Positions 1 to 15,156 of a stretch of 18,033 nucleotides of DNA are shown piece after piece. Under the pieces are notes generated by a model. That model saw nothing but the letters and a program-made list of their open reading frames with translations. It had not been told where the DNA came from and made no database searches. This DNA comes from Pseudomonadota bacterium. GTDB lineage: Bacteria > Bdellovibrionota > Bdellovibrionia > Bdellovibrionales > SG-bin7. How positions within the stretch are numbered: the first letter of the stretch is position 1; every line of letters starts with the position of its first letter. The stretch lies in assembly GCA_034439715.1 (NCBI GenBank), contig JAWXAY010000014.1, forward strand, positions 1-18,033, in the 5' to 3' direction. The position numbers were made by a program, and so were the translations under genes.

Positions 1-690
1 ATAAAACAATACATAGGCTGGATGTATGACAAAAAATATAGCTACTCCCATCTTGTAAATACCTCTCTGGGCCTAGAGCACTACACTCGCTACAAAGGAG
101 GAGTCGTTAAACTGACAAGGCCAAAAAAGCCAAGGAGACTTATCAAAGATGTTTTAACTGAGTCCGAAGTTTCACGGTTACTATTAGCCGCCAAAAATAT
201 TCGAACAAAAGCCATGATTTGTTTGCTGTCATATTCAGGCGCTCGAAACAATGAACTTTGCAATATTAAAGTTGAAGACGTTGATTTAGGAGGGAATCAA
301 TTAACAATTCGTGATGGAAAAAATCGCCAAGACGGGGTCATTAATATTTCTGCTGAATGTACCAAAGTCCTGATTGATTACTTACGGGATTATCCGAGAG
401 AAAAAGAAGAATTTTTATTTACGACTCTGGTCAGAAAAAAACAATTAACCACCGGTGATCTTCGAAAAACACTTCGGGTCATGGCAGTAAAAGCTAAAAT
501 TGGACGCAGGGTATTTCCACACTTGCTCCGCCACAGCTTAGCGACCAATCTATTGAACCGAGGGGCTAGTCTAATGATGATCCAACAACAACTTCGCCAC
601 CGGTTTATAGAATCGACAATGATTTATGTTGTTTCAAGGCCTATTCGAAATCGCTCAGAATATGACTTTCATAAACCAGCGTACATGTAA
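1..690 (+). CDS. Tyrosine recombinase/integrase (XerC/D-like), probably 5'-truncated by the window edge
   Basis: Catalytic motifs in order: SGARNNEL (R), GKNRQD (K), PHLLRHS (HxxR), QLRH (H; usually LGH), TMIY (Y). The frame is open from base 1 (IKQYIGW-M), so the ATG at 22 is probably not the true start. Confidence 0.92.
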   Translation: MKQYIGWMYDKKYSYSHLVNTSLGLEHYTRYKGGVVKLTRPKKPRRLIKDVLTESEVSRLLLAAKNIRTKAMICLLSYSGARNNELCNIKVEDVDLGGNQLTIRDGKNRQDGVINISAECTKVLIDYLRDYPREKEEFLFTTLVRKKQLTTGDLRKTLRVMAVKAKIGRRVFPHLLRHSLATNLLNRGASLMMIQQQLRHRFIESTMIYVVSRPIRNRSEYDFHKPAYM

Positions 691-703
691 ATTCTTGGGC
701 TTT

Positions 704-2059
704 CTACCTAGATCCGTGAAGCAAATGCCTCAAGTGATTGGGAGTAATATCGAGGCGACGCGATGCTTCGGTTTTGTTACCGCCAGATTCTTGTAACGCT
801 GCTTTTAAAAAATCGGTCTCTTCGCTCCTCTTCATCTCTCGAAACTTCGAAAACGTAAGACCCGATACGGACTCAACCTGATTGCCATAAAGCTTTAAAT
901 CCAGATCACTCGGGCCAATCATAGATTCATCAGAAATTACTAAATGCTGCTCTACCATTCCTTCAAGCTCACGAACATTGCCTGGCCATGCGTAGCGTTT
1001 GAATACATCAAGGGTTCTACGCTGAAAAAATTTATTTTTCCCACTCTTCTTATTATAGCGATCCGTAAAATGCGCCACTAAGGGCTCGATGTCATCAACG
1101 CGACTCCTGAGCGGAGGTATCTCAACATGGACAACGTTTATCCGATAAAACAAATCTTCGCGAAAGGTTCCATTTGCGATGAGGGTCGCTAAATTTCTGT
1201 GAGTCGCACAAATAATTCGGACGTTTATCTTTTGAGGATTTCTGGCGCCGACCGGAATTATTTCACGTTCCTGTAAAACTCTTAATAATTTTACTTGCAA
1301 CTCCATCGGCATATCACCGATTTCATCTAAAAAAATGGTTCCATGATTGGCAAACTCGAATTTGCCAACCTTGTCAGCGATGGCTCCAGTGAAAGAGCCC
1401 TTTTTGTGGCCAAATAGTTCGGACTCAAGTAGCTCTCTAGGGATGGCCGCGCAATTTATAGCGACGAAATTGCCCTTCGCTCTTGATGACAACTTATGAA
1501 GCGCTTTAGCAACCAATTCCTTACCCGTGCCAGACTCTCCGCAAATAAGCACTGAGGTATCTGAAGCTGCTGCAAATTTTTGAACCCTAGTTGCCAACTC
1601 TGCCGACGCTTGGGACTGCCCAACCATACCAACAGATTCAATTAATTTTCTATTTTCGGATTTTGACATTTCTGGTCGAATAGTGCGAAACGCTTCTTCA
1701 TAACGGTTACAGAATGAAGCCACAGTCGCGAGGAGTTCCGGCGGTGCCAAACTTTTGTCAACGAAGTCCAATGCTCCCGCCCGCATACTGTTTTTTAAGG
1801 CTTCGCGAGACAGATCACACGAATACATCGCGATTTGTTGATTTGGATTCGCCTGATGCGCCAGCGATGCCAAAGTGTCGCCCATCATTTCGGGCATCTG
1901 ATAATCAAAAAGAGCGAGCGCAAACTCTTCCTTTTTCAGAAGTTCAAGAGCCTCGCTCGGTGAGGAACACGTTTTAACTTCATAATTATTAGAATTCAGA
2001 AACGATTGTGTTGCCTTCAACATTTTTAGGTCATCATCGACAATCAATAGTTTATACAA
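704..2059 (-). CDS. Sigma54-dependent response regulator (NtrC/AtoC family: receiver, AAA+ and Fis-type HTH)
   Basis: Receiver LIVDDD...LFDYQMP...K; Walker [27 protein letters not shown] (GAFTGA loop variant); Walker [26 protein letters not shown]-terminal [18 protein letters not shown] helix-turn-helix. Confidence 0.96.
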
Positions 2060-3423
2060 GTTTCACCTCGCAAAATAGGAAACTGAATCGAAATATTTGT
2101 CCCCTTATTTAGTTCGCTCTTAAGTTCAATTTTGGCTAACCTTTTATCGCAAATGTACTTCACCACAGCCAAACCAAGACCAGTTCCAGTCCCCGGCTTT
2201 AGGGTGAACTCTGGATCGAAAACATTTGGCTGGGCCATTTTTGAAATACCTTTGCCGAAATCTTCAATCGAAAGTGTGCCAATATTATTTTCGGTGCTGA
2301 CTCGAACATTGATAACGCTGCCATTTGGCGAAGCATCGGAGGCGTTTTGAACCAAATTAGCAAGAATTCTTGAAATATCAGTCTTTGAAAACGGGCAACG
2401 AATGCTATCTGACTTCGAACTAAATCTGACTTTGATGCCCTTCGATGTAAGGGATTCGTTTTCCGACAATGCTTTTACCTCACTCTCGACCATACTAACC
2501 AATTCAGTATTTTCGGGCGCCGTTTTTTCATTTAAACTTTTGACCTGGGATGCCACACCCGTGACCCTCTTTAAGGAATCTCGAATATCTGTCAAAAGTT
2601 CATTTTGGTCGTTGGAGTGGAGACGTGTTTCAAGCGTCGCAAGATTCAATTGAAGCTGCGCTACGGGAGTCAATAAGTCGTGTGCAATGCCTCTTAGAAG
2701 CAAAAGTCTTGCCTTATCTGTTGCCGTTCGCTCAAAGTTTTCTATTTGTTGAGTTAAGCCATCCAGAGCTTCTTTGAGCGGAATTAATTCGTTGAAAGGT
2801 ACTTGATGCCTGGGGCCAGCATCTTTCGGATTCTCTCTGATACGAGCAGACCAATTTTTAATTTCTGAACCCAAGCTTATTGACGCTACTTTCGAGATTC
2901 TCAAAAAATAAATAATCAGTGCAAAATAGCCGATTGAAAAAATCAGAAAAACCGTAATTAGAAATGACCAATTCAATGAAATAGCTCTTGAAATATAGAG
3001 GTAACGAAAAGGCGTATTATTGGCACTATCCATTGAAATTGGAAATTCAATTCGTGCTGGCCCAAAATAGCCATCAAAACAGGGAACTCCGATAGAAGGG
3101 CATTGCGCAATTTCAAGCCTGTCACCAACTTGGCTATAGATTTTTGAGTGGTCTGCCCTCAATATTTTCACGACTTCGTGCTCTTTTAACAAAAGCAGAT
3201 CGCGCACCTGAGCCTCAACTGAACGAATATCTCCATCAATTATTCGATCTTTAAAGGCCTGAGCTGTTGCTCTGGCGCTTTCCTGGAGACTCGCGGCTGC
3301 TTGCTCACGCGCCAGTAAAAAAGAAGTTGCGGACAAAATAAGTACCAAAGAGCCAAAAATAAGTCCCGCGTACTTAAAAAGCGCTCTCCGAAAAAATGTC
3401 TCTATAGTTCGCGTCTGAGTCAT
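2044..3423 (-). CDS. Membrane-bound sensor histidine kinase (two TM segments, extracytoplasmic domain, HisKA, HATPase_c)
   Basis: Hydrophobic segments AGLIFGSLVLILSATSFLLA and FLITVFLIFSIGYFALIIYF; H-box GIAHDLLTPV; N-box ILANLVQNASDA; G1 DFGKGI; F-box VFDPEFT; G2 GTGLGL. Overlaps the regulator start by 16 nt. Confidence 0.95.
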   Translation of the reverse strand: MTQTRTIETFFRRALFKYAGLIFGSLVLILSATSFLLAREQAAASLQESARATAQAFKDRIIDGDIRSVEAQVRDLLLLKEHEVVKILRADHSKIYSQVGDRLEIAQCPSIGVPCFDGYFGPARIEFPISMDSANNTPFRYLYISRAISLNWSFLITVFLIFSIGYFALIIYFLRISKVASISLGSEIKNWSARIRENPKDAGPRHQVPFNELIPLKEALDGLTQQIENFERTATDKARLLLLRGIAHDLLTPVAQLQLNLATLETRLHSNDQNELLTDIRDSLKRVTGVASQVKSLNEKTAPENTELVSMVESEVKALSENESLTSKGIKVRFSSKSDSIRCPFSKTDISRILANLVQNASDASPNGSVINVRVSTENNIGTLSIEDFGKGISKMAQPNVFDPEFTLKPGTGTGLGLAVVKYICDKRLAKIELKSELNKGTNISIQFPILRGETCINY

Positions 3424-4889
3424 CTAAATCTTACCTTAGAAAAAGCAACGGTTTCATCGCTAGTGGGAACTCTAGATAAATCTATTCCATTTCGCGCAAC
3501 AACGATTGACGAGAAATGAAAAAGAGGGAGCAGACACCCATCTTGCACCGATTGAGTAAACACTTTTCGATACTCAGCATTTCTTTTGGGTTCTTCCCAG
3601 TTTCTAGCGGCAATAGTACGAGTTTTAAAGTCACCACTGCCCTCACCTGAGTTTGGAATAAGGGGTGGGTTCATGCCAAAGAAAAAAGAGACAGCTCCCT
3701 CTACATTAGGATCATTTACGGGAATCGTAGCTACGAGTATATCGTAATTACCTGCGGCCCGTGCTTTATCAAATTCGCTCAGTGGCACCATGATAAACTT
3801 TGGCCTATGTCCGGTTTGCAATTCTATAGATTTTGATAAATTCTCCCTCAACACTTGATCCAAGCGGCCAGACACCGCTAACAATTCAAGAGGCTTCTTG
3901 TTAAATTGGGTCGGCATTATATTTTCAGCTTTTATTTTTTGAAAATCTGGGTCGAATATTACATACCCAGGCGGAAAAAACTGCTGACTTAGACTAAAGC
4001 CCGTCAAACTGTTCGTTAAAACCTTGCGGTCGAGATTCTCATTTAGTGCAAGAAATAATTTTCGTCCCTCAGCGTTTGAAAGTTTTTTACTTGGCACTAG
4101 AAAGAAAATTCTATCTAAATTCCGATTCCATCTAGAAAAATGCTGCTGCTCATATCGTTTTTCTAGCTCTTTTGACATCAACGACGACGATGCAACTATG
4201 TTTGGCCAAGAATCTTCACCAAACCCTTCGTGGTCGCCAGTTGCCTGCGCGCTTGGCTGTCTGATAATAATTTGCTCAGCCATGCCTTTTTCGGTCCCAT
4301 ACCAATGTGAATTTATTAAAAGTGTAAGTTCTTTTTTCGATTCGTGACCCAAAAAGAATGGACCGCTAGTTTTCGCTAGGTTAAGGGAACCATCTGGGCG
4401 AACAAATACAACTCCATACATCGGCTCGGTCAATTTATGTAATAGTAAACTTTTACCAACTGGACGATTCAGCTTGAAAATAATCGTTGATGAATCCCTT
4501 GCCTCAATTGTATCTAGAATTTCAAACAGACTTTTTAGATCATCGCCATAAAGTTTTTTAGCACGATTGAAGCTTTTAATAATCTGGTCTGAATTTATTG
4601 CCGTTCCATCTGACCACTTGGCCTCAGTTCTAATTTTAAAAACGACTTCTTTGTCTGAAGTGCCCTCCACCAGCTTTGCGATTCCATCTTTGAGATTTCT
4701 AGAGGGCGTCCAGTCCACCAGTGTCGAAGCGAGTGCGTAGGAGAGGTCGAGATCAACGAGTGTTTTCACATTTGCCGGATCGACAGGGCGCCCAAATGAC
4801 ATATACGTTTTGATAACTCTAGATTGTTGCGCCACAGCGCCCCCCTCGCAAACACAAAAAATTAAAGCCAGCAGTAATTTCATTTTCAT
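3420..4889 (-). CDS. Family-5 (OppA/DppA-like) extracytoplasmic solute-binding protein with no adjacent permease
   Basis: N-terminal signal peptide (MKMKLLLALIFCVCEGGAVA); SBP_bac_5-like motifs FKIRTEAKWSDGTAINSDQIIKSF, TIIFKLNRP, SGPF; size 489 aa. ATGA overlaps with both neighbours. Confidence 0.8.
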   Translation of the reverse strand: MKMKLLLALIFCVCEGGAVAQQSRVIKTYMSFGRPVDPANVKTLVDLDLSYALASTLVDWTPSRNLKDGIAKLVEGTSDKEVVFKIRTEAKWSDGTAINSDQIIKSFNRAKKLYGDDLKSLFEILDTIEARDSSTIIFKLNRPVGKSLLLHKLTEPMYGVVFVRPDGSLNLAKTSGPFFLGHESKKELTLLINSHWYGTEKGMAEQIIIRQPSAQATGDHEGFGEDSWPNIVASSSLMSKELEKRYEQQHFSRWNRNLDRIFFLVPSKKLSNAEGRKLFLALNENLDRKVLTNSLTGFSLSQQFFPPGYVIFDPDFQKIKAENIMPTQFNKKPLELLAVSGRLDQVLRENLSKSIELQTGHRPKFIMVPLSEFDKARAAGNYDILVATIPVNDPNVEGAVSFFFGMNPPLIPNSGEGSGDFKTRTIAARNWEEPKRNAEYRKVFTQSVQDGCLLPLFHFSSIVVARNGIDLSRVPTSDETVAFSKVRFR

Positions 4890-5185
4890 TTTTCATTCAT
4901 TATTGAACCAAAGCAACTCGGGTTAGCCAAGTGCTTAAGCCCCGCCTCTGATTTTGGAATAAAAATTATTTTTTCATTCTCATCCAGTCCTACAGCGATC
5001 TCGTCCCAGTCAATAATAATATTTTTTGTGATATTAGCGACCTCTTCAGTGATTTGCTGCCGCTGCTCTGGAGGAAGATTCTCAATCGGTGTGAACGATT
5101 GTCCATCCGCGTGTGCAGTTGATACTTGGAATACTCCTATCATGGCAAACAAAGCCGCAGATCTCGTCGTTTTGTTATTTTTCAC
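4886..5185 (-). CDS. Small secreted protein (99 aa); candidate YcaO substrate / signal precursor
   Basis: In-frame GTG at 5185 lies 7 nt after AAGGAG and just past the ycaO stop (5202), a better start than 5227. Sec signal MKNNKTTRSAALFAMIGVFQVSTAHA; acidic mature region; single Cys in C-terminal NPSCFG. Stop overlaps the SBP ATG. The precursor role is inference. Confidence 0.75.
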   Translation of the reverse strand: MKNNKTTRSAALFAMIGVFQVSTAHADGQSFTPIENLPPEQRQQITEEVANITKNIIIDWDEIAVGLDENEKIIFIPKSEAGLKHLANPSCFGSIMNEK

Positions 5186-5201
5186 CTTCGTACTCCTTTT
5201 G

Positions 5202-6209
5202 TTATGAAACAATATGAGGCTTCTCATTTATCGGTTCAGTTTTTAAATTTAGTCTTTCTATTCCTTTTTCTCTTAGGAGGGTTTCTATATTGGTCGATTG
5301 CCACTTAAGCGTCAGTGCTAGGGGATGATGAGCAAAGCCGACATGGGTCGGTATACTCATCACTTGTTGGTAGCAAAAGCGACGGTCCTTAAGGCAATGT
5401 TTTACATTCTCACCCCAAAATGATTTCACCAATTCAAAGGGTTCAGATTTACCAAACATCCACGAGGGAAAGGGTTCATGATAGGCGTAAAATAGCGCAT
5501 GAGCACTTGGGCCTACAAACCCCAAGTCAGTTTCTTTTAACTTGAGTGTGTCTTTCCAATGAGCCTTTCGGATTGACGCGTGGGCGGCTCGACAAGCTTC
5601 AGAAATCGCGCTAGAAATAGCATCTTCCAAAGTGGCTCTAGTAGAGTGAGCGCTGACGCCAAAGCCATTTTTATTCATCAAAATACATGTCACCGATGGG
5701 CCAAGGCCTTTGGTTGAAATTAGAAATTTCAATATTGGAAATTCTGAGCGAGATAATTCCGACTTTTGCCATGAGATAATTTCTAAAGGTAGTTGATCTT
5801 GTTCAAGCTGGGTGAACGGAGTTTTTGTGTACCACTGAGCCAAAACGGCATCTCTTTCGACCAATTCCAAGATTGCATTCATCCTCGCTTGATCTTTTGT
5901 GGGATGGGCGGCCCAGCCGTTACTTGTTTCAGCGCCATATTGACCGCCAAAGGCCAAGAGCGCAGATCGCTCAATCAATTCTGATATGGCCTTGTTCATT
6001 CCGGTGTCTTGATCGTCTGACTCTCCGCAGACAATTATTTCTCGATTATTTAAAACTGCGGAAATATCTGTGATGTACTTAGAGAAGCGAAAGCCAATGG
6101 GGCGTCGGCCAGTTTCAATGCGAATAGATTCGTAAGAAAATGGAAGGGCCGACTTTAAGTGCGACCGACCTGAATTAAATGTCTCTTCCTTTTGAATCGC
6201 CGCAATCAT
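5202..6209 (-). CDS. YcaO-family ATP-dependent peptide backbone-modifying enzyme (compact, 335 aa)
   Basis: ATP/Mg-binding signatures KAISELIER, TSNGWAAH, AILELVERDA and later AISEA; Pro-His C-terminus (EKPHIVS); G-rich RBS (GGCGGGGG) upstream of ATG 6209. Confidence 0.85.
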   Translation of the reverse strand: MIAAIQKEETFNSGRSHLKSALPFSYESIRIETGRRPIGFRFSKYITDISAVLNNREIIVCGESDDQDTGMNKAISELIERSALLAFGGQYGAETSNGWAAHPTKDQARMNAILELVERDAVLAQWYTKTPFTQLEQDQLPLEIISWQKSELSRSEFPILKFLISTKGLGPSVTCILMNKNGFGVSAHSTRATLEDAISSAISEACRAAHASIRKAHWKDTLKLKETDLGFVGPSAHALFYAYHEPFPSWMFGKSEPFELVKSFWGENVKHCLKDRRFCYQQVMSIPTHVGFAHHPLALTLKWQSTNIETLLREKGIERLNLKTEPINEKPHIVS

Positions 6210-6260
6210 TCTACCCCCGCCAAAAAATTAAAGGCTCGTCGACCTCTATAATTCTTCTAA

Positions 6261-6277
6261 AGCAATTGAGAGGCCAA
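6261..6277 (-). promoter_or_regulatory. Sigma54 (-24/-12) promoter for the ycaO operon
   Basis: Minus strand reads TTGGCCTCTCAATTGCT: GG-N10-GC with exact canonical spacing, close to TGGCAC-N5-TTGCW, 52 nt upstream of the ycaO ATG. The operon encodes a sigma54 activator. Confidence 0.82.
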
Positions 6278-6383
6278 GACTGGATCAGTGGTGGAATCGG
6301 CAAGAGTTGTAGGTAGTTATGAAATTCCCATCTCAATTTTAAAATGCTTTATAGCACAGAAATCAGTGAAATCACGGTAATAC

Positions 6384-6673
6384 CCACAGAGATTCTGTGG
6401 GTCAGAGATATAATTTTTCTAAAAAACAACAACAACCATTCGATTTTGTAAATGAATTCCACCTAGAGTCATTAACCACAGAGTTTCTGTGGCGGTGTGA
6501 AGATATTACCAAATTAGCATGTTTACGAGCGAACACTACTGCGTGGCCGTCTAAGGATTGTTTGACCCACACAATCTCTGTGCCCCCTCAGAAATTCTGT
6601 GGTTTCGCGTAAACACCAAATTCCTCACCTGAATTTCTGTTTTTCGAGCAAGTAATCCACAGAATCTCTGTGG
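6384..6673. repeat. Array of palindromic CCACAGA-N3-TCTGTGG sites; likely enhancer/operator sites
   Basis: Perfect copies at 6384-6400, 6476-6492 and 6657-6673; one mismatch at 6586-6602; two mismatches at 6567-6583; degenerate copies near 6354-6369 and 6626-6642. Confidence 0.9.
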
Positions 6674-6753
6674 GCAATCGTTTAATTCAAAAAACTAAAA
6701 AACACACCCATTCGTTACTGATCTCAATAAGCTAACTCACTTTTTAAAAAAAG

Positions 6754-6768
6754 TTGGCACACCTTGCA
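6754..6768 (+). promoter_or_regulatory. Sigma54-like promoter elements with non-canonical (2 nt short) spacing
   Basis: TTGGCAC-ACC-TTGCA: both boxes match consensus but GG-to-GC spacing is 8 nt rather than 10. Lies about 57 nt upstream of ATG 6825. Confidence 0.4.
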
Positions 6769-6824
6769 ATTTAAATAGGTGTAGGAACAAAAAAGTTCCC
6801 ACCAAATAACAAGGGGGAGAGGCC

Positions 6825-7040
6825 ATGCCCAAGAAAGCATATTTTACTGATTGCCCACGCTGTGGATTACGTTCATTTGAGCATTTGAGCGACTATGCTC
6901 ATTGCCCAAACTGTCTCTACTTCGAAGATTACTACGAAGACACTGAGACCTGTTACTCCGCAGCCAGAGCAATCGAAATTATTCACATGAGGCCCATTCG
7001 TAAAATTGAGACTGACAAAATTAAAAAAATCGCTTCTTGA
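6825..7040 (+). CDS. Small zinc-ribbon protein (CxxC...CxxC)
   Basis: CPRC-x12-CPNC; strong RBS AAGGGGGAG; first gene of the plus-strand region. Confidence 0.7.
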   Translation: MPKKAYFTDCPRCGLRSFEHLSDYAHCPNCLYFEDYYEDTETCYSAARAIEIIHMRPIRKIETDKIKKIAS

Positions 7041-7288: not shown

Positions 7289-7555
7289 ATGAAAAACCAA
7301 TTTAATCCTCAGCTTCGACAACAACTGTCTTTAGATAATTATGAGGTACTTCATCAACACCTACTTCGGCTGAGCTGGCGACAGCAATTGGTGATTCAAT
7401 TGAGATTTTGGGAGAAATACTCAATTTTCCAAATCGCGCACACCATGGGCATTAGTTGGAGGGCTGCCGATGAACTCATTGAAATGGCAATCCTAAATCT
7501 AAAAGCAGGACTTACTGAGAATTCCACAAAAACTGCCGTACTTAAAGCGGCATAG
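7289..7555 (+). CDS. Stand-alone sigma70 region-4-like helix-turn-helix protein
   Basis: LLRLSWRQQLVIQLRFWEKYSIFQIAHTMGIS...AILNLK matches the sigma region 4 pattern L-s-x-R-q-x-V-I-x-L-R-F-x4-S-x2-IA-x2-M-G-I-S; RBS GAGAGGGG. Confidence 0.75.
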   Translation: MKNQFNPQLRQQLSLDNYEVLHQHLLRLSWRQQLVIQLRFWEKYSIFQIAHTMGISWRAADELIEMAILNLKAGLTENSTKTAVLKAA

Positions 7556-7572: not shown

Positions 7573-8004
7573 ATGGATCAAAATGTAGAAACTCAAAAGC
7601 ACAATGACAAATTTTATCGTTTTCAGGTCTTCCAAGGAGAGCGAGATGCCTCTGGAAAAATGAAAAAAACCAAAAGCGTCGGCATGGCTTATCTGAAAGA
7701 CGGCCAATCCATGCTCACTCTGCGACTCTGGACGCTTGTGAGCGAGCGATTTTATTTAATTCTCAATAAAAATGATGCTTCTAAATATTTAGTGATGACC
7801 CGGGAACCTAATAAAAATCCCTTGGGCAAAAATAAATATTTTTGGAATATCGTTGGCAATGGCGTGATTGATACCACACAAGGTCTTGTCACTATTGAGT
7901 TTGATCTATTGGATAAGCCGATTTTCATGAGCACACATCCAGAGTCATCCGCGTACTCAGTTTCGCTGCCTAAACCAGAGGATGTAATTCCTGACGCCGC
8001 TTAG
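7573..8004 (+). CDS. Hypothetical protein with two internal beta-rich repeats
   Basis: RBS AAGGA. Repeats KSVGMAYLKDGQSMLTLRLWTL and NIVGNGVIDTTQGLVTIEFDLL; acidic Pro-rich tail. Confidence 0.65.
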   Translation: MDQNVETQKHNDKFYRFQVFQGERDASGKMKKTKSVGMAYLKDGQSMLTLRLWTLVSERFYLILNKNDASKYLVMTREPNKNPLGKNKYFWNIVGNGVIDTTQGLVTIEFDLLDKPIFMSTHPESSAYSVSLPKPEDVIPDAA

Positions 8005-8072: not shown

Positions 8073-8360
8073 ATGAAAAATAAAAATAGTTTTTTAGTTT
8101 TTGGTGTTTGTTTATCTTTAGCAATTTTGTTTCCTGACTTTGCCCACGCTGGGCTCGAAGGAAGTCTTGAGGGTCTCAAATATAAACTCACAGGAGTGAT
8201 TTTACCACTGCTCGCAGTGATGGGAATTGCTCTTTCAGCACTTTCGTTGTTCACCGGAAATCCAAATGCGAAACAACATATCGCCTATGCGATTCTGGGC
8301 TGCATATTCGGTTTTGGCGCACAAGCGATTGTTGATTTTATTGCACAAACTGTTCGCTAA
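8073..8360 (+). CDS. VirB2/TrbC-like pilin
   Basis: 95 aa; leader ending PDFAHA followed by two hydrophobic helices; first gene before the VirB3/VirB4-like genes. Confidence 0.82.
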   Translation: MKNKNSFLVFGVCLSLAILFPDFAHAGLEGSLEGLKYKLTGVILPLLAVMGIALSALSLFTGNPNAKQHIAYAILGCIFGFGAQAIVDFIAQTVR

Positions 8361-8374
8361 GAAATGGAAGGAAT

Positions 8375-8695
8375 TTGGAAAACCAGGGACTACTTACAAC
8401 GAAAGTGGCGCGTGCGCTTGAAATGAAGACGAAACTTTTTGGCTTTGAGTTGCCAGACCTGCTTATAATTTTCATGAATTTGGCAGTGACAAACCTAGTG
8501 TTCGGGACGACATCCTTTCGCTATCCGCTAGTATGGGGGACTACGCTGATTTTGGCGTCGTTCCTCTATTTTTCAAAACGCGGAAAGCCGGACAATTACT
8601 TGCAGCATTTAGGGGAAATCATAGCACAACCCTCTTACAAGGCTGCTGGTCGAGCTGATAAAAAATATCGAAAATTTAGAAAGGGGGGAAATTAA
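8375..8695 (+). CDS. VirB3-like small membrane protein
   Basis: TTG start after GGAAGGA; KLFGFE followed by two TM segments and a basic tail; sits between pilin and VirB4-like ATPase with TAATG coupling. Confidence 0.72.
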   Translation: MENQGLLTTKVARALEMKTKLFGFELPDLLIIFMNLAVTNLVFGTTSFRYPLVWGTTLILASFLYFSKRGKPDNYLQHLGEIIAQPSYKAAGRADKKYRKFRKGGN

Positions 8696-11211
8696 TGAAC
8701 CCTAATGCAAATAAAAAAGATGCGGCACTTTGCCAGGAGCTTCCATTCTGGGATTTTTTTGCGGAGCCCTTCGGTCATGCCGTACTTATTGACGGCTCCT
8801 TAGTGTGTGGACTCAAAGTGTCTCTGATCGACATTGAGTGCTTTGGTGAAAGTGAAGTGAATCAACTAACCCAAGGAATGAGGGCCGCGCTTGACTCATT
8901 GACCGAAGGTACCACTTTACAATTTGTTTTAAGCGTAGGGTCTGATTTCTCTGATTTGATTAAAAAGCACAAGAATGCTCAGACTGATATGGCGCATCCA
9001 TTAGTTCAGAGCATCGCAAAACATCGCGAAGAATCTCTGACCTTAGCAATGAATACCAAGGAGCTCTATCGCCCAGAACTTTGTGTTTACATTCGAACCG
9101 AGATGGTGGACCAGAAAAAATCTGCGTTTTGGAAAAGGAAATCGGATTTTTCTACCAAGGCAGGCCTTGCCTATGAGGAAACAATAGAGTCTCTGAGTCA
9201 GAATGTTGACACTTTGATTTCTGCCTTGGAGTCTCTGGGTTTTTCGTGCCATGCCCTATCTAGAGAAGATTTGATTTCCAATGTTTATCGTTTTCTTAAT
9301 CCCAAACGTGCTGACAGCGAGCCCTCGCCAAAACTTGTGACGCCAACTGGGCCGGACATAGACCCAAAGGTGCTTGATGAGACAGAATGGCTTGCCAACC
9401 AATCGCCGCGTGAGCAATTGGTGTTTGGAGATTTGGTTCTCAGCTATGAACAATTTGTCTTGGACGGATTTGAGCATCGTTTGGTGACCCTTAAGACTCT
9501 GCCCGAAGTTACATTTGCTGGCCAACTTGCTCACTTTTTACGCCTTCCATTTCATTACACGTTGACGCTCTCTCTTGAGGTTCCGCCCCAAGCAAATGAG
9601 ATGGCAAAGCTGCAACAAAAACGAAAAATGGCTCACTCTATGGCACTAACTCAAGGGAATAAAGCAAGCGACCTTGAGAGTGAGACTAAGTTGAACTCTA
9701 CCGAGGAGTTGATTAGGGAATTACTCTCTACAGGGCAGAGAGTTTATGCCGTTCAGTTGAATATTCTTTTAAGAGCACCAGCGACAACCGATGGCCACAA
9801 AAAACTCAATCGCGAAGTGCGCGAGGTTTTGGCGCGGTTCCGCTCGCTCCAGGGTGCAGAGGGCTTAGAAGAAACCGTTGGGAGTTGGAAAATAATGAAG
9901 GGCAATTTTCCAGCAGCTCCTATTAATTTGGAGCGCGCTAGAAAAATGAAGACACATAATCTTGCAGATTTTCTTCCGGTCTATGGTCCGAGGGTTGGTG
10001 ACAGCGACCCGGCGGTTATTTTTAGAAATCGCCTCAATGGGCTTGTAAGCTTTAATCCTTTTGATCCTGGTCTACCCAATTATAATGCGCTCGTCACGGG
10101 TTCGAGTGGAGCCGGAAAGAGTTTTTTAAATAACTGCATCTTGCTCCAGGAATTAGCTCGTGGTCTTCGGGTATTTATTATCGACATTGGAGGAAGCTAC
10201 CAGAAACTTACGGAGAGTCTTGATGGTCAGTATTTAGAAATTAATCTTACCGACAACTACAAATTAAATCCTTTTCACCTCACAAATCCACAAGAAGAGC
10301 CCAGTAATCAGAAGCTGAAATCAATATTAGCAATCATTGAGTGCATGGTTGCAGAAAATGATAAAGTAAAATTAGCAAAACTCGACCGCGCACTTTTAGA
10401 GCGAGCCGTGATTGAACTTTATCGTTCTCGCCGACCAAAGGGCGAAATACCAACTTTGACTGACCTCGCAAAATATTTATCTGTTTTCGAAGAAGACTCG
10501 ATGAGAGCGATTTCTAAGATGTTATATCTCTGGACTGGCGAGAGACCTTATGGGCGATTGCTTGATGGCCAGGGAGGCCTTAGAACGGACGCAAATATTT
10601 GCACCTTTGATCTGAAGGGGCTATCAAGCCATCCCGATTTACAAAGCGTAATGATTTTGATTCTAACGGACTTCATTCTTTCGCAAGTGGAGAGTGACAA
10701 AGTAAATCGTAAACGAATTATTTTGGACGAAGCGTGGGAGCTTCTGAAATCTGAGGCTGCGGCTGGATTTATGGAGTATTGCGCGAGAACTCTCAGAAAA
10801 ACTGGCTCTGGAATAACATTTATTACTCAAGGTGTAGAAGAAATCGTGGCCTCGCCAATTGGGGCTGCGATTTTAAACAATACCGCGACGAAATTTGTAA
10901 TGCTCCAGCGCGGAGATTCTGAAATTCTAGCTCAGGCACTTAAACTTAATGAACAAGAGTTAAATCTTGTTCACTCGCTTCAACAACGAAAGGGAGAGTT
11001 TTCAGAAGGATTCATGATTGCAGGAGATCATCGTCAAGTTATAAGAATATTTCCAAGTCCCTTTGAGTATTGGCTATCGACGTCAGACGCACAAGACAAC
11101 AATTTGGTCGCAGATCTGAGAAAGCAAGGTCTTGAATTGCCAGAAGCCATCAAAAAAGCAGCCGAACTTTACCCAAATGGTTTAGCCGCTGGTCTTAAGG
11201 GAGTAACATGA
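8695..11211 (+). CDS. virB4: VirB4/TraC-family conjugative T4SS ATPase
   Basis: 838 aa; NALVTGSSGAGKS (Walker A), IIDIGGSY, INL...LNPF, IILDEAW (Walker B), RTLRK, FITQ, ILNNT. Confidence 0.93.
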   Translation: MNPNANKKDAALCQELPFWDFFAEPFGHAVLIDGSLVCGLKVSLIDIECFGESEVNQLTQGMRAALDSLTEGTTLQFVLSVGSDFSDLIKKHKNAQTDMAHPLVQSIAKHREESLTLAMNTKELYRPELCVYIRTEMVDQKKSAFWKRKSDFSTKAGLAYEETIESLSQNVDTLISALESLGFSCHALSREDLISNVYRFLNPKRADSEPSPKLVTPTGPDIDPKVLDETEWLANQSPREQLVFGDLVLSYEQFVLDGFEHRLVTLKTLPEVTFAGQLAHFLRLPFHYTLTLSLEVPPQANEMAKLQQKRKMAHSMALTQGNKASDLESETKLNSTEELIRELLSTGQRVYAVQLNILLRAPATTDGHKKLNREVREVLARFRSLQGAEGLEETVGSWKIMKGNFPAAPINLERARKMKTHNLADFLPVYGPRVGDSDPAVIFRNRLNGLVSFNPFDPGLPNYNALVTGSSGAGKSFLNNCILLQELARGLRVFIIDIGGSYQKLTESLDGQYLEINLTDNYKLNPFHLTNPQEEPSNQKLKSILAIIECMVAENDKVKLAKLDRALLERAVIELYRSRRPKGEIPTLTDLAKYLSVFEEDSMRAISKMLYLWTGERPYGRLLDGQGGLRTDANICTFDLKGLSSHPDLQSVMILILTDFILSQVESDKVNRKRIILDEAWELLKSEAAAGFMEYCARTLRKTGSGITFITQGVEEIVASPIGAAILNNTATKFVMLQRGDSEILAQALKLNEQELNLVHSLQQRKGEFSEGFMIAGDHRQVIRIFPSPFEYWLSTSDAQDNNLVADLRKQGLELPEAIKKAAELYPNGLAAGLKGVT

Positions 11212-11915
11212 AGAAAATTAAGAAATTTATTGTTGTGGGACTCATAAGTTTTGGACTTATGGTCCCACAGCCAGGTCGTGCCGACATCTTCGGCGGCGAC
11301 GTTGCTGTATTGGTGCAGATTTTAGCAAATGCGATTCAGCAATTGACGCAACTTCAGCAAATCTTAGGCACTGGCGCAAATACGCTAAATTTAATGAGAG
11401 ATATAAATCGAGGAATTAGAGACGGACTTGCCGTCATTCAGATGCTAAATCCAAAATTCAATCCTGGTCTGTACGGAGATTTGGAAACGGCTGACCGCGT
11501 ATTATCAACGCTTCAAGATTTATACGGACGAATTCCCAATACTAGCGAGTCACGGCTACAGGCCGCGCAAGATCAATCGGCCTCAGAAAGTATCGCCATG
11601 AACGGCACGCTATTTCGATTTGCAGACCGTGCTGACGACGAAAGTCGAAAAATAATTGACCATTCTCAAGTAGTAAATCCGCAGGGGGCGGCAAAGCTGA
11701 CAGCCCAATCAATTGCAATTTTAATAGGAGTGACCACTCAAGTTCTGAGAACTAACTCAATGATGCTCAAAATGATGGGCGAAAATATGGCTCTCTCAAA
11801 CCGAAAAGAAAAAGTACAAGCCGCACAGTTTCGCACCCAGTACGATGGGCTCTCACACGCATTTGGTGGACTTCCCGATAGCACCAAACTCGCTCCCCTA
11901 GACGGAGGAAATTAA
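11208..11915 (+). CDS. VirB5/TrbJ-like secreted T4SS component
   Basis: Signal peptide ending PGRA-D; Gln-rich helical QILANAIQQLTQLQQ; position between VirB4-like and VirB6-like genes. Confidence 0.62.
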   Translation: MKKIKKFIVVGLISFGLMVPQPGRADIFGGDVAVLVQILANAIQQLTQLQQILGTGANTLNLMRDINRGIRDGLAVIQMLNPKFNPGLYGDLETADRVLSTLQDLYGRIPNTSESRLQAAQDQSASESIAMNGTLFRFADRADDESRKIIDHSQVVNPQGAAKLTAQSIAILIGVTTQVLRTNSMMLKMMGENMALSNRKEKVQAAQFRTQYDGLSHAFGGLPDSTKLAPLDGGN

Positions 11916-11917
11916 AG

Positions 11918-12781
11918 ATGCCACAGTTTGAACTTCTTGGCTCACTCATGCGCGACTTACATCAAGAATTTGTGAGACTTTATTATTTAATGCTGCCGCT
12001 GTTTTTTGCTATTGCGATAGCGAGTGCATGGTTTCGGGCGCCAGGCGGTGGCCTCGAATTTGTCGATACCTTAAGGAGGACCATTGTCGCAACTTTATTA
12101 CTGGCGGCCCTTCCTGATATCAGTCGCGCCATCATTGTGGTCGCCGATGGGATAGCTGATAAAATTGATCAAATGAACAATATCGACGTTATCATTCGCA
12201 TGGCACAGGAAAAGTCTCAGGGATATTCGTTATCACTAAAAAGTATTCTGCTACAGTTCGATGATCTGATTATAGCGGGACTTTCATTCATTAGTTACTT
12301 GGTGCTTTATATCGCGAGATATTTAACACTTGCAATGTATCACTTCTTTTGGCTCTTCTATATGGTTACGGCACCCTTGCTGCTTTTGTTTAATTTGTTT
12401 CCTGGTACCAGCCAAATTACGAAAAATCTATTCAGAGGAATGATTGAAGTCGCTTCTTGGAAAATTGTCTGGGCAATCTTAGGAGCAATGCTTGCCTCCC
12501 TAAGTTTTGGCGAAATGTATCGCAGTGAGGGAAGTTACGTCGAACTAATAGTGATGAATTTTGTTATCGCAATTGCCATGTTAGCCACACCAATGCTTGT
12601 ACGGTCACTTATAAATGGCGGGCTTACTTCAATGTCTTCAGTCATTGGTCCGGCCTCTGTTGCCGCAATAGTGGCCACCCCTGCTAGAGCTGCCACGATG
12701 TACGGTGCAACTAAGGGTGGCCTATCCAGCGGAAAGAATTTTGTGAGCGCAAGATTAGAAAAAAGACGATCCGAAAAATAA
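11918..12781 (+). CDS. VirB6/TrbL-like polytopic inner-membrane protein
   Basis: About 5-6 hydrophobic segments; APLLLLFNLFPGT motif; Gly/Ala-rich C-terminus; position in the cluster. Confidence 0.75.
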   Translation: MPQFELLGSLMRDLHQEFVRLYYLMLPLFFAIAIASAWFRAPGGGLEFVDTLRRTIVATLLLAALPDISRAIIVVADGIADKIDQMNNIDVIIRMAQEKSQGYSLSLKSILLQFDDLIIAGLSFISYLVLYIARYLTLAMYHFFWLFYMVTAPLLLLFNLFPGTSQITKNLFRGMIEVASWKIVWAILGAMLASLSFGEMYRSEGSYVELIVMNFVIAIAMLATPMLVRSLINGGLTSMSSVIGPASVAAIVATPARAATMYGATKGGLSSGKNFVSARLEKRRSEK

Positions 12782-12822
12782 AATCAACGCTCAATGTACC
12801 GTTTTTAAAAATAAGGAACCTT

Positions 12823-13410
12823 ATGCAAACTAATGTTCAAATAAAATCCTTGAAGTTTCCAAAGCTTCTTGGCGACTTAACTCATTCGAATCAATTCTTG
12901 AAGATGTTTTCAATTTCAATGGCTGGAATCACAATTCTTGCACTTGTCTTGATTTTTGTATTGGCAACTCGAAGCCCAGTCGTCTTGACCCTGAACCCCA
13001 ATGCCCAACCCATAAACCAAGTGAGTTTGCCCAATCCTGAACTAGAAGTTCAGTCTGCAATGAGGCGCTACCTTGAACTTCGATATCAGTGGACCCCAGA
13101 GACAGTTAAACAGAAACTGGCTGAGGCACTGTCGATGATTCACTTAAGCGCAATGAAGGCATATTTGGGAGCAGCTGCAAACGTCGTTAAATTCTCGACT
13201 GAGAAACTTGTTTCTCAGCGGGTTTATGCCACAATTCTTACGGTTGATCTTCGCCGCAGGAATGTGCAAATTCTTGGGGACCGAATCACAGCAATTCAAA
13301 GTCTAAAAGCGGCTGGTGATTTAAAATTGGAATTGAGTTTCGATTTCGGCCCAAGAACAAAGGAGAACCCGTGGGGAATTTATGTTACGAAAGAACTTGA
13401 AAAGCAGTAA
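12823..13410 (+). CDS. VirB8-like bitopic T4SS protein
   Basis: Single N-terminal TM segment; C-terminal RTKENPWGIYV matches the VirB8/TrbF NPxGxxV motif; RBS AAGGA. Confidence 0.8.
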   Translation: MQTNVQIKSLKFPKLLGDLTHSNQFLKMFSISMAGITILALVLIFVLATRSPVVLTLNPNAQPINQVSLPNPELEVQSAMRRYLELRYQWTPETVKQKLAEALSMIHLSAMKAYLGAAANVVKFSTEKLVSQRVYATILTVDLRRRNVQILGDRITAIQSLKAAGDLKLELSFDFGPRTKENPWGIYVTKELEKQ

Positions 13411-13468
13411 TGCCGTTTTGTTAATGGTCACCTGAGACTGGAATTTTAATTTTTAAATAGGAGTCACC

Positions 13469-14182
13469 GTGAATCCAATCTTTTGGATCATGCTCCTTGC
13501 CCCTGCATTGTCTTTCGCCAACGAACGGGTCCGCCATGTTGAATATCATACCGATCAGATTGTTACCGTTCGAACGGCCCTTGGTATCGCTACGATTATC
13601 CAAGTGCCTGATCGCCCCAACAGTGTTGTTGTTGGCGATCAAGATAAATTTAAGGTGGAATATCTAGATCAAGCGATCACGATCAAGCCACTTCAAGCAG
13701 GAGAAAAGAGCAATCTTTATATTTATACCGACTACCAGAGATACAACGTCCAACTTGTCACTGGAGCTGAAGCCAGTTCTGACTTTGTTATTTATCTTGA
13801 AAATATAAAACCGAAAGCTAAAAAGAAGGCTGCGCCACTTCGATGGACGCCATTTGTTCGCTCAGTTTCTAATGACGAAATTACTTTTGAAAGTAAGCGC
13901 CTTGGCCGCGCAAGTGAGGGCGTGTTTTTAATCGAGTTTCAAATAAGAGCAGCCAAAAAAACTGTCATTAAGCCCGAATGGTTTTGGCTAATACAGGAAA
14001 AAGAAACGAGACCAATTCAAAGTTTATTCATTGCAACAGCTGATCTTGCCGTGGGTGAAAACACTCAAGGGGTGATACAGATTTTAGGGAGAGATATTGA
14101 CCTCACAAAAGCAATTCGAATTGAACTGAGACGAAAAAAAACATCGTTTTTAACAATTCCAAGGATGAACCAGTGGAAATAG
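13469..14182 (+). CDS. VirB9/TrbG/CagX-like outer-membrane core protein
   Basis: GTG start after AGGAG; signal peptide; Y...IVTVRTALGIATIIQ, VVGD, ITIKP, SNLYIYTDYQRY pattern typical of VirB9 N-domains. Confidence 0.85.
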   Translation: MNPIFWIMLLAPALSFANERVRHVEYHTDQIVTVRTALGIATIIQVPDRPNSVVVGDQDKFKVEYLDQAITIKPLQAGEKSNLYIYTDYQRYNVQLVTGAEASSDFVIYLENIKPKAKKKAAPLRWTPFVRSVSNDEITFESKRLGRASEGVFLIEFQIRAAKKTVIKPEWFWLIQEKETRPIQSLFIATADLAVGENTQGVIQILGRDIDLTKAIRIELRRKKTSFLTIPRMNQWK

Positions 14183-15156
14183 ACAAATTACAGGAGCGTC
14201 TTTCAAATTTAGTTTTGAAAGACGCTCTGCCGTTTACCAAAAAGCGAGATGTTAATTGGAAAATTATTCGCAATGTTTCTATTGTCGGAGTGATTAGCAT
14301 GGTCGTTGTTATTCTGCTCTTGCCCACACCAAGGCCCGATCAAAAAATATTTTATGAGAAATCAGAAGGCAGAACGTCGGCTGGGTCAAATCCTGCGAAT
14401 GCCATGACGCCTCATGAGAATAATCCTACTGAGGATACGCTTGCCCAACTTCAAAGTGCAAAAAGTCAGGCTGGATCTGTGCCTAATTCACTTGACCACC
14501 TTTATAACTCTGGTGGCGGCGGTGGGGGCAGTTCAGCTAATCGAAATAGCTCAATGGTCTTATCTCGCGGTGGTTTTGATTCAAAAACTCAACTTCCACC
14601 AGGAGCAAGGTTTTCGGTGGTGCTTGACCAGTCGATGACGCTCGACTCGCATTCGATGCCGCTCACTGCCACGGTCAACAAAGAAGTCACTCAGGAGGAC
14701 GGCACGGCGATTCCTCAAGGTGCAAAGCTCTATGGAGACGCGAGCTTTGACGATGCTTCTGAACGAGTGCAAGTGAATTGGAAGTCGGTTCAGTTTCCTA
14801 ACGGCACCATGAAGCCAATCGCTGGGATTGGAGTTGGCTCAGATGGTCAGGTTGGAGTCGAGGGCGACGTTCATTCAAATGCTATGAAGAACACCGTAGG
14901 GCAAACGCTTACAAGGTTCATCGGAGCTTATGCCGAAGGATCAATGCAAAGAGGTGCTTTGGGTAGCAACCCAGGCGGCGGCGATAACGGACTAAAAAAC
15001 GCGGTGGCTGAGACCGCCAAAGACCGCGCGAATACACTAGCTGAGGGTATGAAAAAAGAACGGAAGTGGATTGAGTTAAAAGCAGGTTCAATATTTTTTG
15101 TGGTTGTGACTCAGGCGTTTCAATTTAGAGATCCAGGAGCTACACATGGCAGATAA
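14173..15156 (+). CDS. VirB10/TrbI-like protein
   Basis: N-terminal TM segment, low-complexity linker, then LPPGARFSVVL, AIPQGAKLYG, RVQVNW...FPNG, DGQVGVEG and IELKAG motifs. Confidence 0.88.
   Translation: MEIDKLQERLSNLVLKDALPFTKKRDVNWKIIRNVSIVGVISMVVVILLLPTPRPDQKIFYEKSEGRTSAGSNPANAMTPHENNPTEDTLAQLQSAKSQAGSVPNSLDHLYNSGGGGGGSSANRNSSMVLSRGGFDSKTQLPPGARFSVVLDQSMTLDSHSMPLTATVNKEVTQEDGTAIPQGAKLYGDASFDDASERVQVNWKSVQFPNGTMKPIAGIGVGSDGQVGVEGDVHSNAMKNTVGQTLTRFIGAYAEGSMQRGALGSNPGGGDNGLKNAVAETAKDRANTLAEGMKKERKWIELKAGSIFFVVVTQAFQFRDPGATHGR

Follow-up and report, generated by a model that had tools for sequence, protein, structure and literature searches.

Signalling by modified peptides, with a dedicated enzyme to mature the signal, is textbook knowledge for Gram-positive bacteria; agr (AgrBDCA) and ComQXPA are the peptide quorum-sensing systems of this kind in the Firmicutes, and both the agr and the com loci are polymorphic at their production and sensor end. 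To our knowledge such signalling is almost unknown in Gram-negative bacteria, and the YcaO enzymes we know of have been linked with antibiotics, with toxins and with the maturation of enzymes, but not with signals. In the LuxP-LuxQ-LuxO pathway of Vibrio an NtrC-type sigma-54 activator is under the control of a membrane kinase, to which a periplasmic binding protein is coupled, and in the pCF10 (cCF10/iCF10 with PrgZ) and ICEBs1 (RapI-PhrI) systems the peptide is unmodified and, once imported, acts on a regulator in the cytoplasm. Here we describe a five-gene cassette on contig JAWXAY010000014.1 (assembly GCA_034439715.1) of a member of the Bdellovibrionota. The window analysed is the whole of this contig (C14; 18,033 nucleotides), part of a 3.26-Mb metagenome bin that is 95.7% complete (G000), and the relatives retrieved by name are Bdellovibrionota metagenome-assembled genomes (MAGs). 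Judging from sequence, we lean by a modest degree towards reading the cassette as a self-contained, self-activating circuit on a mobile element that would both make and sense a modified peptide.

According to the list of open reading frames (ORFs) and the sequence, the five genes are co-oriented on the minus strand. They encode a YcaO-like enzyme of 335 aa (5202-6209; recognised by Pfam and by its fold), a small putatively secreted precursor of 99 aa counted from a GTG (4886-5185; signal peptide and tail motif), a family-5 substrate-binding protein (SBP) of 489 aa (3420-4889; Pfam SBP_bac_5), a sensor histidine kinase (HK) of 459 aa (2044-3423; HisKA and HATPase_c) and an NtrC-type sigma-54 activator, or bacterial enhancer-binding protein (bEBP), of 451 aa (704-2059; Pfam). 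The YcaO gene and the small ORF are separated by a 16-nt gap, the small ORF/SBP and SBP/HK junctions are both 4-nt ATGA overlaps, and the HK and bEBP genes overlap by 16 nt (TTG start). The GTG of the small ORF has an AAGGAG 7 nt upstream, and there is an alternative ATG at 5227. The first-pass annotation of this DNA had reported this tight coupling, a sigma-54 promoter of canonical spacing before the cassette and a type IV secretion system (T4SS) cluster divergent from it; all of this was confirmed, the promoter as GG-N10-GC at 6261-6276 and the T4SS genes on the plus strand at 8073-16747.

The identification of the enzyme rests on both its sequence and its predicted structure. It matches the Pfam YcaO family (PF02624) with 64.2 bits (cut-off 25.7; 1.7e-17), only profile positions 111-245 of 325 being matched, and its AlphaFold2 (AF2) model has a predicted local distance difference test score (pLDDT) of 91.2. 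A Foldseek search with this model gave 41 PDB matches at E<=0.001, and all among the matches listed are YcaO structures; the best are the TfuA-independent archaeal thioamidation YcaOs (6peu/6ci7, E ~1e-8, TM ~0.55), followed by E. coli YcaO, LynD/TruD, McbD and MusD. In 23 homologues the residues K73, E77, E80, R81, G98-W99-A100, H102, E115, E118, R119 and D120 are invariant, as is the NGWAAH motif, and the C-terminus is conserved as PH[FIC]V. Residues E77, E80, R81, E115, E118, R119 and D120 align with MJ1094 and MusD and are presumably the ATP/Mg2+ ligands. Hydropathy reveals no hydrophobic segment, consistent with a cytoplasmic protein. A profile search of 1.84 billion representatives yielded 106 proteins at E<=1e-30 and, with the threshold relaxed to E<=1e-10, 1048, and the homologues form at least 200 clusters at 90% identity; those metagenomic homologues to which a source gives a name go by nothing more specific than 'hypothetical protein', 'YcaO cyclodehydratase, ATP-ad Mg2+-binding' or 'YcaO-like family protein'. 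One further candidate, a 738-aa YcaO-domain protein of Saccharibacteria (L008; 30% identity over 115 aa), was rejected, its context being unrelated.

The small ORF looks like a precursor gene: its product has a putative Sec-type signal, a conserved (S/T)-C near the C-terminus and, in between, a variable body. Its N-terminus reads as a Sec-type signal peptide, with a basic start, a hydrophobic stretch and the sequence AHA-DG, after which the mature long form of the window would be of ~74 aa (residues 26-99). Such long precursors (~95-117 aa) occur in twelve loci and comprise a signal peptide, a conserved E-x-L-P-x-E-Q-R, a helix and hairpin (predicted at pLDDT ~87) and a flexible tail, which in the window is NPSCFGSIMNEK, with a P-S-C motif. 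In nine more distant loci a short precursor of 48-60 aa is sited in the gap between the YcaO and SBP genes; these begin with a signal-like N-terminus, contain a Gly-rich stretch and stop 1-3 residues past the C-terminal motif, and their predicted mature forms are ~18-25 aa with Gly-rich tails. The precursor bodies are highly variable, and the peptides have only their C-terminal motif in common: (S/T)-C in 16 of the 22 distinct peptides and (S/T)-S in another 4 (L005, L043, L046 and L047), with L058 having neither and the call for L048 being ambiguous. Neither the long nor the short precursors belong to any family in Pfam or NCBIfam, and a fold search with the small protein gave no PDB match at E<=0.001. 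Adjacency to a modifying enzyme, found in 22 distinct loci of the closer (first-tier) set, together with a conserved and modifiable core, is the signature of a precursor of a ribosomally synthesised peptide with post-translational modification (RiPP).

With respect to reception, the SBP (54.1 bits to SBP_bac_5) is of the family-5 peptide/nickel type, has an N-terminal hydrophobic segment at residues 1-21 and is predicted to be periplasmic. It is an orphan, permease and ATPase genes being absent from the cassette. Its profile matches the structures of OppA, AapF, MppA, NikA, AgaA, PrgZ and MbnE, the relation to PrgZ, which we take to be a pheromone-binding protein, being at E 1.2e-8. In the HK, hydropathy places two membrane segments (~14-39 and ~144-182) on either side of a predicted periplasmic loop of ~105 aa, and the H-box, HDLLTP, is at residue 248. 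The bEBP combines Response_reg, Sigma54_activat (237.5 bits) and HTH_8 domains, with a Walker A motif at residue 174 and GSFTGA at 221, as in the NtrC family, and hydropathy shows no membrane or signal segments in it.

The region upstream of the YcaO gene contains the elements that such an activator would need. The -24/-12 promoter of sigma-54 type, TGGCCTCTCAATTGCT, lies at 6261-6276 on the minus strand, upstream of the YcaO ATG, with 51 nt between its end and that codon. The window has no other match to TGGC-N7-TTGCW, and a single one is by itself not significant (at least one match in 67 of 200 shuffles); the match gains its weight because the TGGC-N7-TTGC core is conserved just upstream of YcaO across the related loci, in 15 of 24, or 15 of the 21 with at least 490 nt of upstream sequence (3 of the 9 misses had <175 nt). 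The spacing GG-N10-GC, the TGGC/TTGC core upstream of the operon and the single rpoN of the host are what a sigma-54 promoter calls for. A scan for sigma-70 promoters gave 14 matches against 13.3 expected, none within the control region (6210-6825), and a loose sigma-54 consensus with 3 mismatches allowed was uninformative (24 matches, 24.7 expected). Between 118 and 391 bp upstream of the -24 element there is an array of five 17-bp palindromes, CCACAGA-N3-TCTGTGG (6384-6400, 6476-6492, 6567-6583, 6586-6602 and 6657-6673), where 0.48 would be expected and where none of 200 shuffles reached five; in the whole 3.26-Mb genome, with at most one mismatch, there are four sites, all belonging to this array. 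NtrC-type enhancer-binding activators are expected to have such upstream activating sequences (UAS), and we infer that the palindromes are candidate binding sites of the bEBP. Sibling loci have different palindrome arrays at the same place: TTCAAA-N3-TTTGAA in L003, L005, L007, L041 and L043; ATTCAGA-N3-TCTGAAT in L039, L040 and L045; TGCGCG-N6 and TGCGCA-N6 types in L050, L051 and L053; and TGGACG-N6 in L055. Across the elements the recognition helix of the bEBP differs in step with the palindrome type, although this co-variation is confounded by shared ancestry. Taken together, the conserved promoter and the element-specific arrays support an autoregulatory sigma-54 loop as a prediction, and with it the agr/com-like gathering of precursor, maturation enzyme, HK and regulator into one autoregulated unit, the autoregulation being read from the promoter and palindromes.

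Autoregulation by a kinase and regulator pair would also suit an antimicrobial. Nisin induces its own synthesis through NisK/NisR, and the products of YcaO enzymes are often bioactive, so the small peptide could conceivably be a YcaO-made antimicrobial or effector that induces its own synthesis via the two-component system, with signalling as a secondary matter. We think this very improbable, given that, across the 24 loci mapped using the window proteins, no immunity, ABC-export, protease or dehydrogenase gene was found inside or next to the cassette, that a dedicated orphan SBP is always present, and that apparently just one residue is modified.

These loci come from named MAG contigs and from a sample of 401 genomes of the phylum, 42 of which (host included) have YcaO-like matches at E<=1e-10. 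Twenty regions were fetched and, along with the MAG contigs, mapped with the window proteins; two pairs proved to be the same (L006=L042 and L007=L044), which left 24 distinct loci. In 20 of these the YcaO, SBP, HK and bEBP genes occur together with their order kept, so that the five genes, as had been supposed, form a conserved set of constant order even among distant Bdellovibrionota. The remaining four comprise L046, which is truncated by the end of its contig, and three incomplete loci, decayed or rearranged copies: L047 has no bEBP and an SBP split into two ORFs, L051 is without HK or bEBP, and L057 has a lone truncated YcaO. Beyond this set there is a second tier of short YcaOs, more distantly related and matched more weakly (~313-354 aa, ending in PHPxx), in 13 modules at 12 loci (L060-L071) from 10 other Bdellovibrionota genomes. 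An HK gene is adjacent in 12 of the 13 modules, the remaining one being truncated where the fetched stretch ends; an SBP-like match is adjacent in 11, an unmatched ORF of ~500 aa occupying that place in the other two; and small signal-peptide ORFs, several with a single Cys near the C-terminus, adjoin most modules. Two gene orders are found, peptide-SBP-YcaO-HK and YcaO-peptide-SBP-HK. Two modules on one contig were seen only in this tier (L066; L067 with L068; G223, a single contig). Carriers of second-tier modules include complete genomes, among them G223 and G128.

The bin of the window contains a second element, on contig C36 (L003), with the same gene order. Between C14 and C36 the integrases are 96.5% identical and the T4SS proteins 49-72% identical, and for the five cassette proteins the identity is 28-43%. 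In a closer pair, L003 and L005, whose T4SS proteins are 70-93% identical, the identity rises along the operon, from 46% for the YcaO through 51% for the peptide, 58% for the SBP and 69% for the HK to 73% for the bEBP. By analogy this gradient resembles the polymorphic production-sensor end of agr and com; it could come instead from weaker constraint, and like the helix/palindrome co-variation it is confounded by shared ancestry. The diverged peptides and operators of the siblings would fit element-specific channels without cross-talk.

The circuit towards which we lean would work as follows. The sigma-54 promoter would drive a single five-gene operon. The cytoplasmic YcaO, using ATP, would activate the backbone amide at the C-terminal P-(S/T)-C of the precursor; the likeliest chemistry is a Cys-derived azoline, with a thioamide or amidine as the alternatives. 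The precursor would then cross the inner membrane via Sec, its signal peptide being removed, and the ligand would be the ~74-aa mature protein or a shorter C-terminal fragment of it. In the periplasm the orphan family-5 SBP would capture this ligand and relay it to the periplasmic loop of the HK, which would phosphorylate the NtrC-type activator; bound to the five CCACAGA-N3-TCTGTGG palindromes, the activator would turn on the sigma-54 promoter and so close a positive feedback. The output probably bears on the divergent conjugation operon too, with which the cassette has a 615-bp control region in common, and this is the weakest step. A more far-reaching version, which we put forward only tentatively, would make this the first family of YcaO-made peptide pheromones in diderms, giving each conjugative element of the Bdellovibrionota a private channel, composed of a precursor modified at its C-terminal (S/T)-C, a periplasmic receptor and kinase dedicated to it, and a sigma-54 activator paired with an operator of its own, by which cells could count co-carriers and time transfer. 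The same tentative judgement covers, jointly with the pheromone itself, the pherotype-like separation of co-resident siblings by their diverged peptides and operators, which is drawn by analogy.

Several observations weigh against the circuit so drawn. With respect to the enzyme, the azoline-maturase model TIGR03604 (SagD type) gives 55.1 bits where its cut-off is 219.25; none of the window's 20 ORFs encodes an E1-like/Ocin-ThiF partner, a fused leader-binding domain or an FMN dehydrogenase; and TfuA (PF07812) was not found in the host bin, 95.7% complete as it is. Because of the low TIGR03604 score and the lack of a partner, neither the activity of the YcaO nor its substrate is certain: the protein appears to be a divergent, compact, stand-alone YcaO whose chemistry, with that cut-off missed and no partner protein, cannot be called from sequence. 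On the same side are the six of 22 peptides that have no Cys, the shared ancestry that confounds both of the comparisons given above, and the residence of C14 and C36 in one cell, which is an assumption, the genome being a metagenome bin. A YcaO with no recognisable leader-binding partner would be at home in a quite different scheme, in which what the SBP, HK and bEBP detect is a peptide or nutrient from outside, the YcaO has the SBP, the HK or some other molecule as its substrate, and the small ORF encodes an unrelated periplasmic protein. We consider this improbable: the small ORF always adjoins the YcaO or the SBP gene, in both gene orders and in families less than 30% identical, and its only conserved part is the C-terminal (S/T)-(C/S), the residues on which YcaO cyclodehydratases act.

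Export is a further difficulty. No route across the outer membrane is encoded, and porins would not admit a product of 74 aa, which means that the signal may stay inside the cell for good. This leads to a single-cell alternative, which we hold to be rather unlikely though clearly less so than the antimicrobial and external-sensing schemes, in which the modified small protein stays in the periplasm and serves either as autocrine feedback that renders activation of the element bistable or as a metal- or redox-binding reporter, read in its loaded form by the SBP, of nickel/metallophore type, and the HK, with no intercellular communication. Export by Sec only, with no outer-membrane exporter in the cassette, would suit it, as would a mature long form modelled as a folded protein of ~74 aa and the occurrence of the module away from T4SS genes. 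The SBP profile also matches NikA, nickel and metallophore binders and MbnE, and the accessible part of one report describes the bufferins as Sec-exported, periplasmic, copper-binding small proteins with Cys heterocycles (PMC11626156). However, the cassette peptides have one conserved Cys and the bufferins 4-6, the short forms would mature to ~18-25 aa with Gly-rich tails, and hypervariable bodies with distinct sibling operators are more in keeping with specific recognition than with one metal ligand common to all.

The link to conjugation is where the circuit and the pheromone proposal are most exposed. The T4SS genes (pilin, VirB4/TraC, VirB6, TraE, VirB9, VirB10 and coupling protein; 8073-16747, plus strand) have counterparts beside the cassette in 13 of the 19 assessable loci, five loci having too little flank. 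In the other 6 (L046, L049, L052, L053, L055 and L057) no T4SS was seen within the 2.6-11 kb of YcaO-upstream flank, and in the 12 second-tier loci phmmer at 1e-3, applied to ORFs of 100 aa or more, showed no homologues of the T4SS proteins. A third sibling T4SS, on contig C7 (31768-40744; VirB4 77% identical), stands without a cassette, and no canonical sigma-54 promoter was found before the T4SS operon of the window. These points, too, count on the opposing side. The first-pass annotation had suggested a search for conserved YcaO-SBP-HK-NtrC synteny next to virB4 and had proposed a conjugation-linked autoinducing cassette; the synteny stands (20 of 24 loci) and the adjacency to the T4SS only in part (13 of 19), while the architecture and the precursor logic stand and the link to conjugation is weaker than implied there, given the T4SS-free modules and C7. 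As autoinduced modified-peptide signalling, the cassette is thus partly supported, by its predicted architecture and precursor logic. Because the second-tier modules recur without T4SS genes, the core module seems to be a general device of the phylum, one branch of which, plus a sigma-54 activator, seems to have been recruited by conjugative elements.

The T4SS side has a conserved motif of its own. Located ~55 nt upstream of the first T4SS-side gene, TTGGCACACCTTGCAA (6754-6769, plus strand) belongs to a sequence TTGGCAyrCCTTGCAATT that is found ~55-65 nt upstream of that gene in 8 of 9 aligned loci (the L003 copy is at 6741-6756). Its hexamers are sigma-54-like, but the spacing, GG-N8-GC (N9 in L040), is 2 nt under canonical, and sigma-54 requires the canonical spacing. 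Genome-wide, TGGCAY-N3-TTGCW has 18 sites and the canonical N5 form 32, compared with 5-11 for N1, N2, N4 and N6-N8; of the 18 N3 sites, 8 fall outside long ORFs, compared with 0-3 for N2, N4 and N6, and several are 35-130 nt upstream of genes. On these counts the short-spacer N3 motif may represent a second promoter class. The T4SS operon is headed by a 71-aa Cys-rich, Zn-ribbon-like protein (6825-7040), and the divergent operon has two further leader genes, for an 88-aa protein with sigma-70 region 4 only (7289-7555) and a 143-aa protein (7573-8004), all on the plus strand. The Zn-ribbon and region-4 proteins are candidate element regulators; in the 20 fetched loci the first has homologues in 10 and the second in 2. 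In L045, likewise a decayed or rearranged copy, ~6 kb is inserted between the cassette and the T4SS operon. Upstream of the C7 T4SS the place of a cassette is taken by unrelated genes, for a two-component system, an arsenate-reductase-like protein and a channel, and a fourth, distant T4SS (VirB4 33%) is located on contig C38 at ~11700-16540.

With respect to mobility, the window encodes an integrase, the T4SS, its coupling protein and a MobC-like protein, part of what an integrative and conjugative element (ICE) would have; the 18-kb contig contains no relaxase. The integrase is a tyrosine recombinase whose gene (1-690, plus strand) is convergent with the cassette and has its 5' end cut by the contig start. 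Contigs C14 and C36 start at the same point inside this gene (1-690 in each), and the two copies have 92% DNA and 96.5% protein identity, the remainder of the elements being at 28-72%. This points to an integration module that is common to C14 and C36 or was recently exchanged between them, and the near-identity is probably why the assembly breaks there. One cassette relative, L007, sits in a 1.9-Mb contig, so that copy at least is chromosomal; a search of the PLSDB plasmids with the YcaO protein gave no match. The sequencing runs listed comprise 8 DNA runs, every one labelled microbial mat metagenome, and no RNA runs.

If the circuit proves true, the Bdellovibrionota would have a compact, modular cassette that is conserved among them and each variant of which has an operator to itself. 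Bacterial signals would gain a new chemical class and mobile elements a new means of timing transfer, and peptide, receptor and operator would make up a naturally orthogonal set of parts.

Full-text searches, with subscription journals largely outside their scope, found no description of a YcaO-peptide-SBP-HK-bEBP cassette; the first-pass annotation likewise knew of no system of this composition. One paper considered as a possible description was set aside, its accessible part concerning other Bacteroidales clusters (PMC10352776). Nor does any of the known systems, agr/ComQXPA, LuxPQ-LuxO, PrgZ-type conjugation control or the bufferins, match the cassette in composition. What it has in common with agr and ComQXPA is one operon, here putatively autoregulated, comprising precursor, modifying enzyme, membrane HK and response regulator, and a production/reception end that diverges faster than the regulator end. 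However, its host is a diderm, its enzyme is a YcaO and not AgrB or ComQ, its export would be by a Sec signal, it adds a periplasmic binding protein, and its regulator is a sigma-54 activator; beyond generic kinase and receiver domains there is no protein homology. The succession of binding protein, membrane HK and NtrC-type activator recalls LuxPQ-LuxO. Here the differences are that the NCBIfam models for LuxO (290.6, cut-off 800) and LuxN (46.5, cut-off 1550) are missed, that the SBP is of family 5 and not of LuxP type, that the HK is non-hybrid and there is no LuxU, and that a ribosomal peptide would take the place of AI-2 as the signal.

On the enzyme side, the cassette YcaO has the fold and the acidic motifs, presumably nucleotide/Mg-binding, of McbD, LynD/TruD, MusD and the archaeal McrA-thioamidation YcaO, and its substrate candidate has an (S/T)-C. 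It is much smaller (335 aa), and has no E1-like, ThiF-like, dehydrogenase or TfuA partner; whereas cyclodehydratase YcaOs have a proline-rich C-terminal end, it ends in PH[FIC]V. As in pCF10 and ICEBs1, the peptide, putatively secreted, is encoded by a mobile element and a binding protein of family 5 is involved, but the cassette is without a permease, its HK is adjacent and its peptide is probably modified. Finally, the bufferins, which the accessible part of their report presents as MNIO-modified, Sec-exported RiPP metallophores, set a precedent for RiPP precursors with a Sec signal (PMC11626156). According to the same part of that source, they resemble the product predicted for the cassette in being small, folded, periplasmic mature proteins of ~60-75 aa with modified Cys, and differ in having four to six Cys, not one, and an MNIO/DUF2063 enzyme in place of a YcaO (PMC11626156). 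What further distinguishes the cassette gene from those of the bufferins is its coupling to an SBP, an HK and a sigma-54 activator on a conjugative element.

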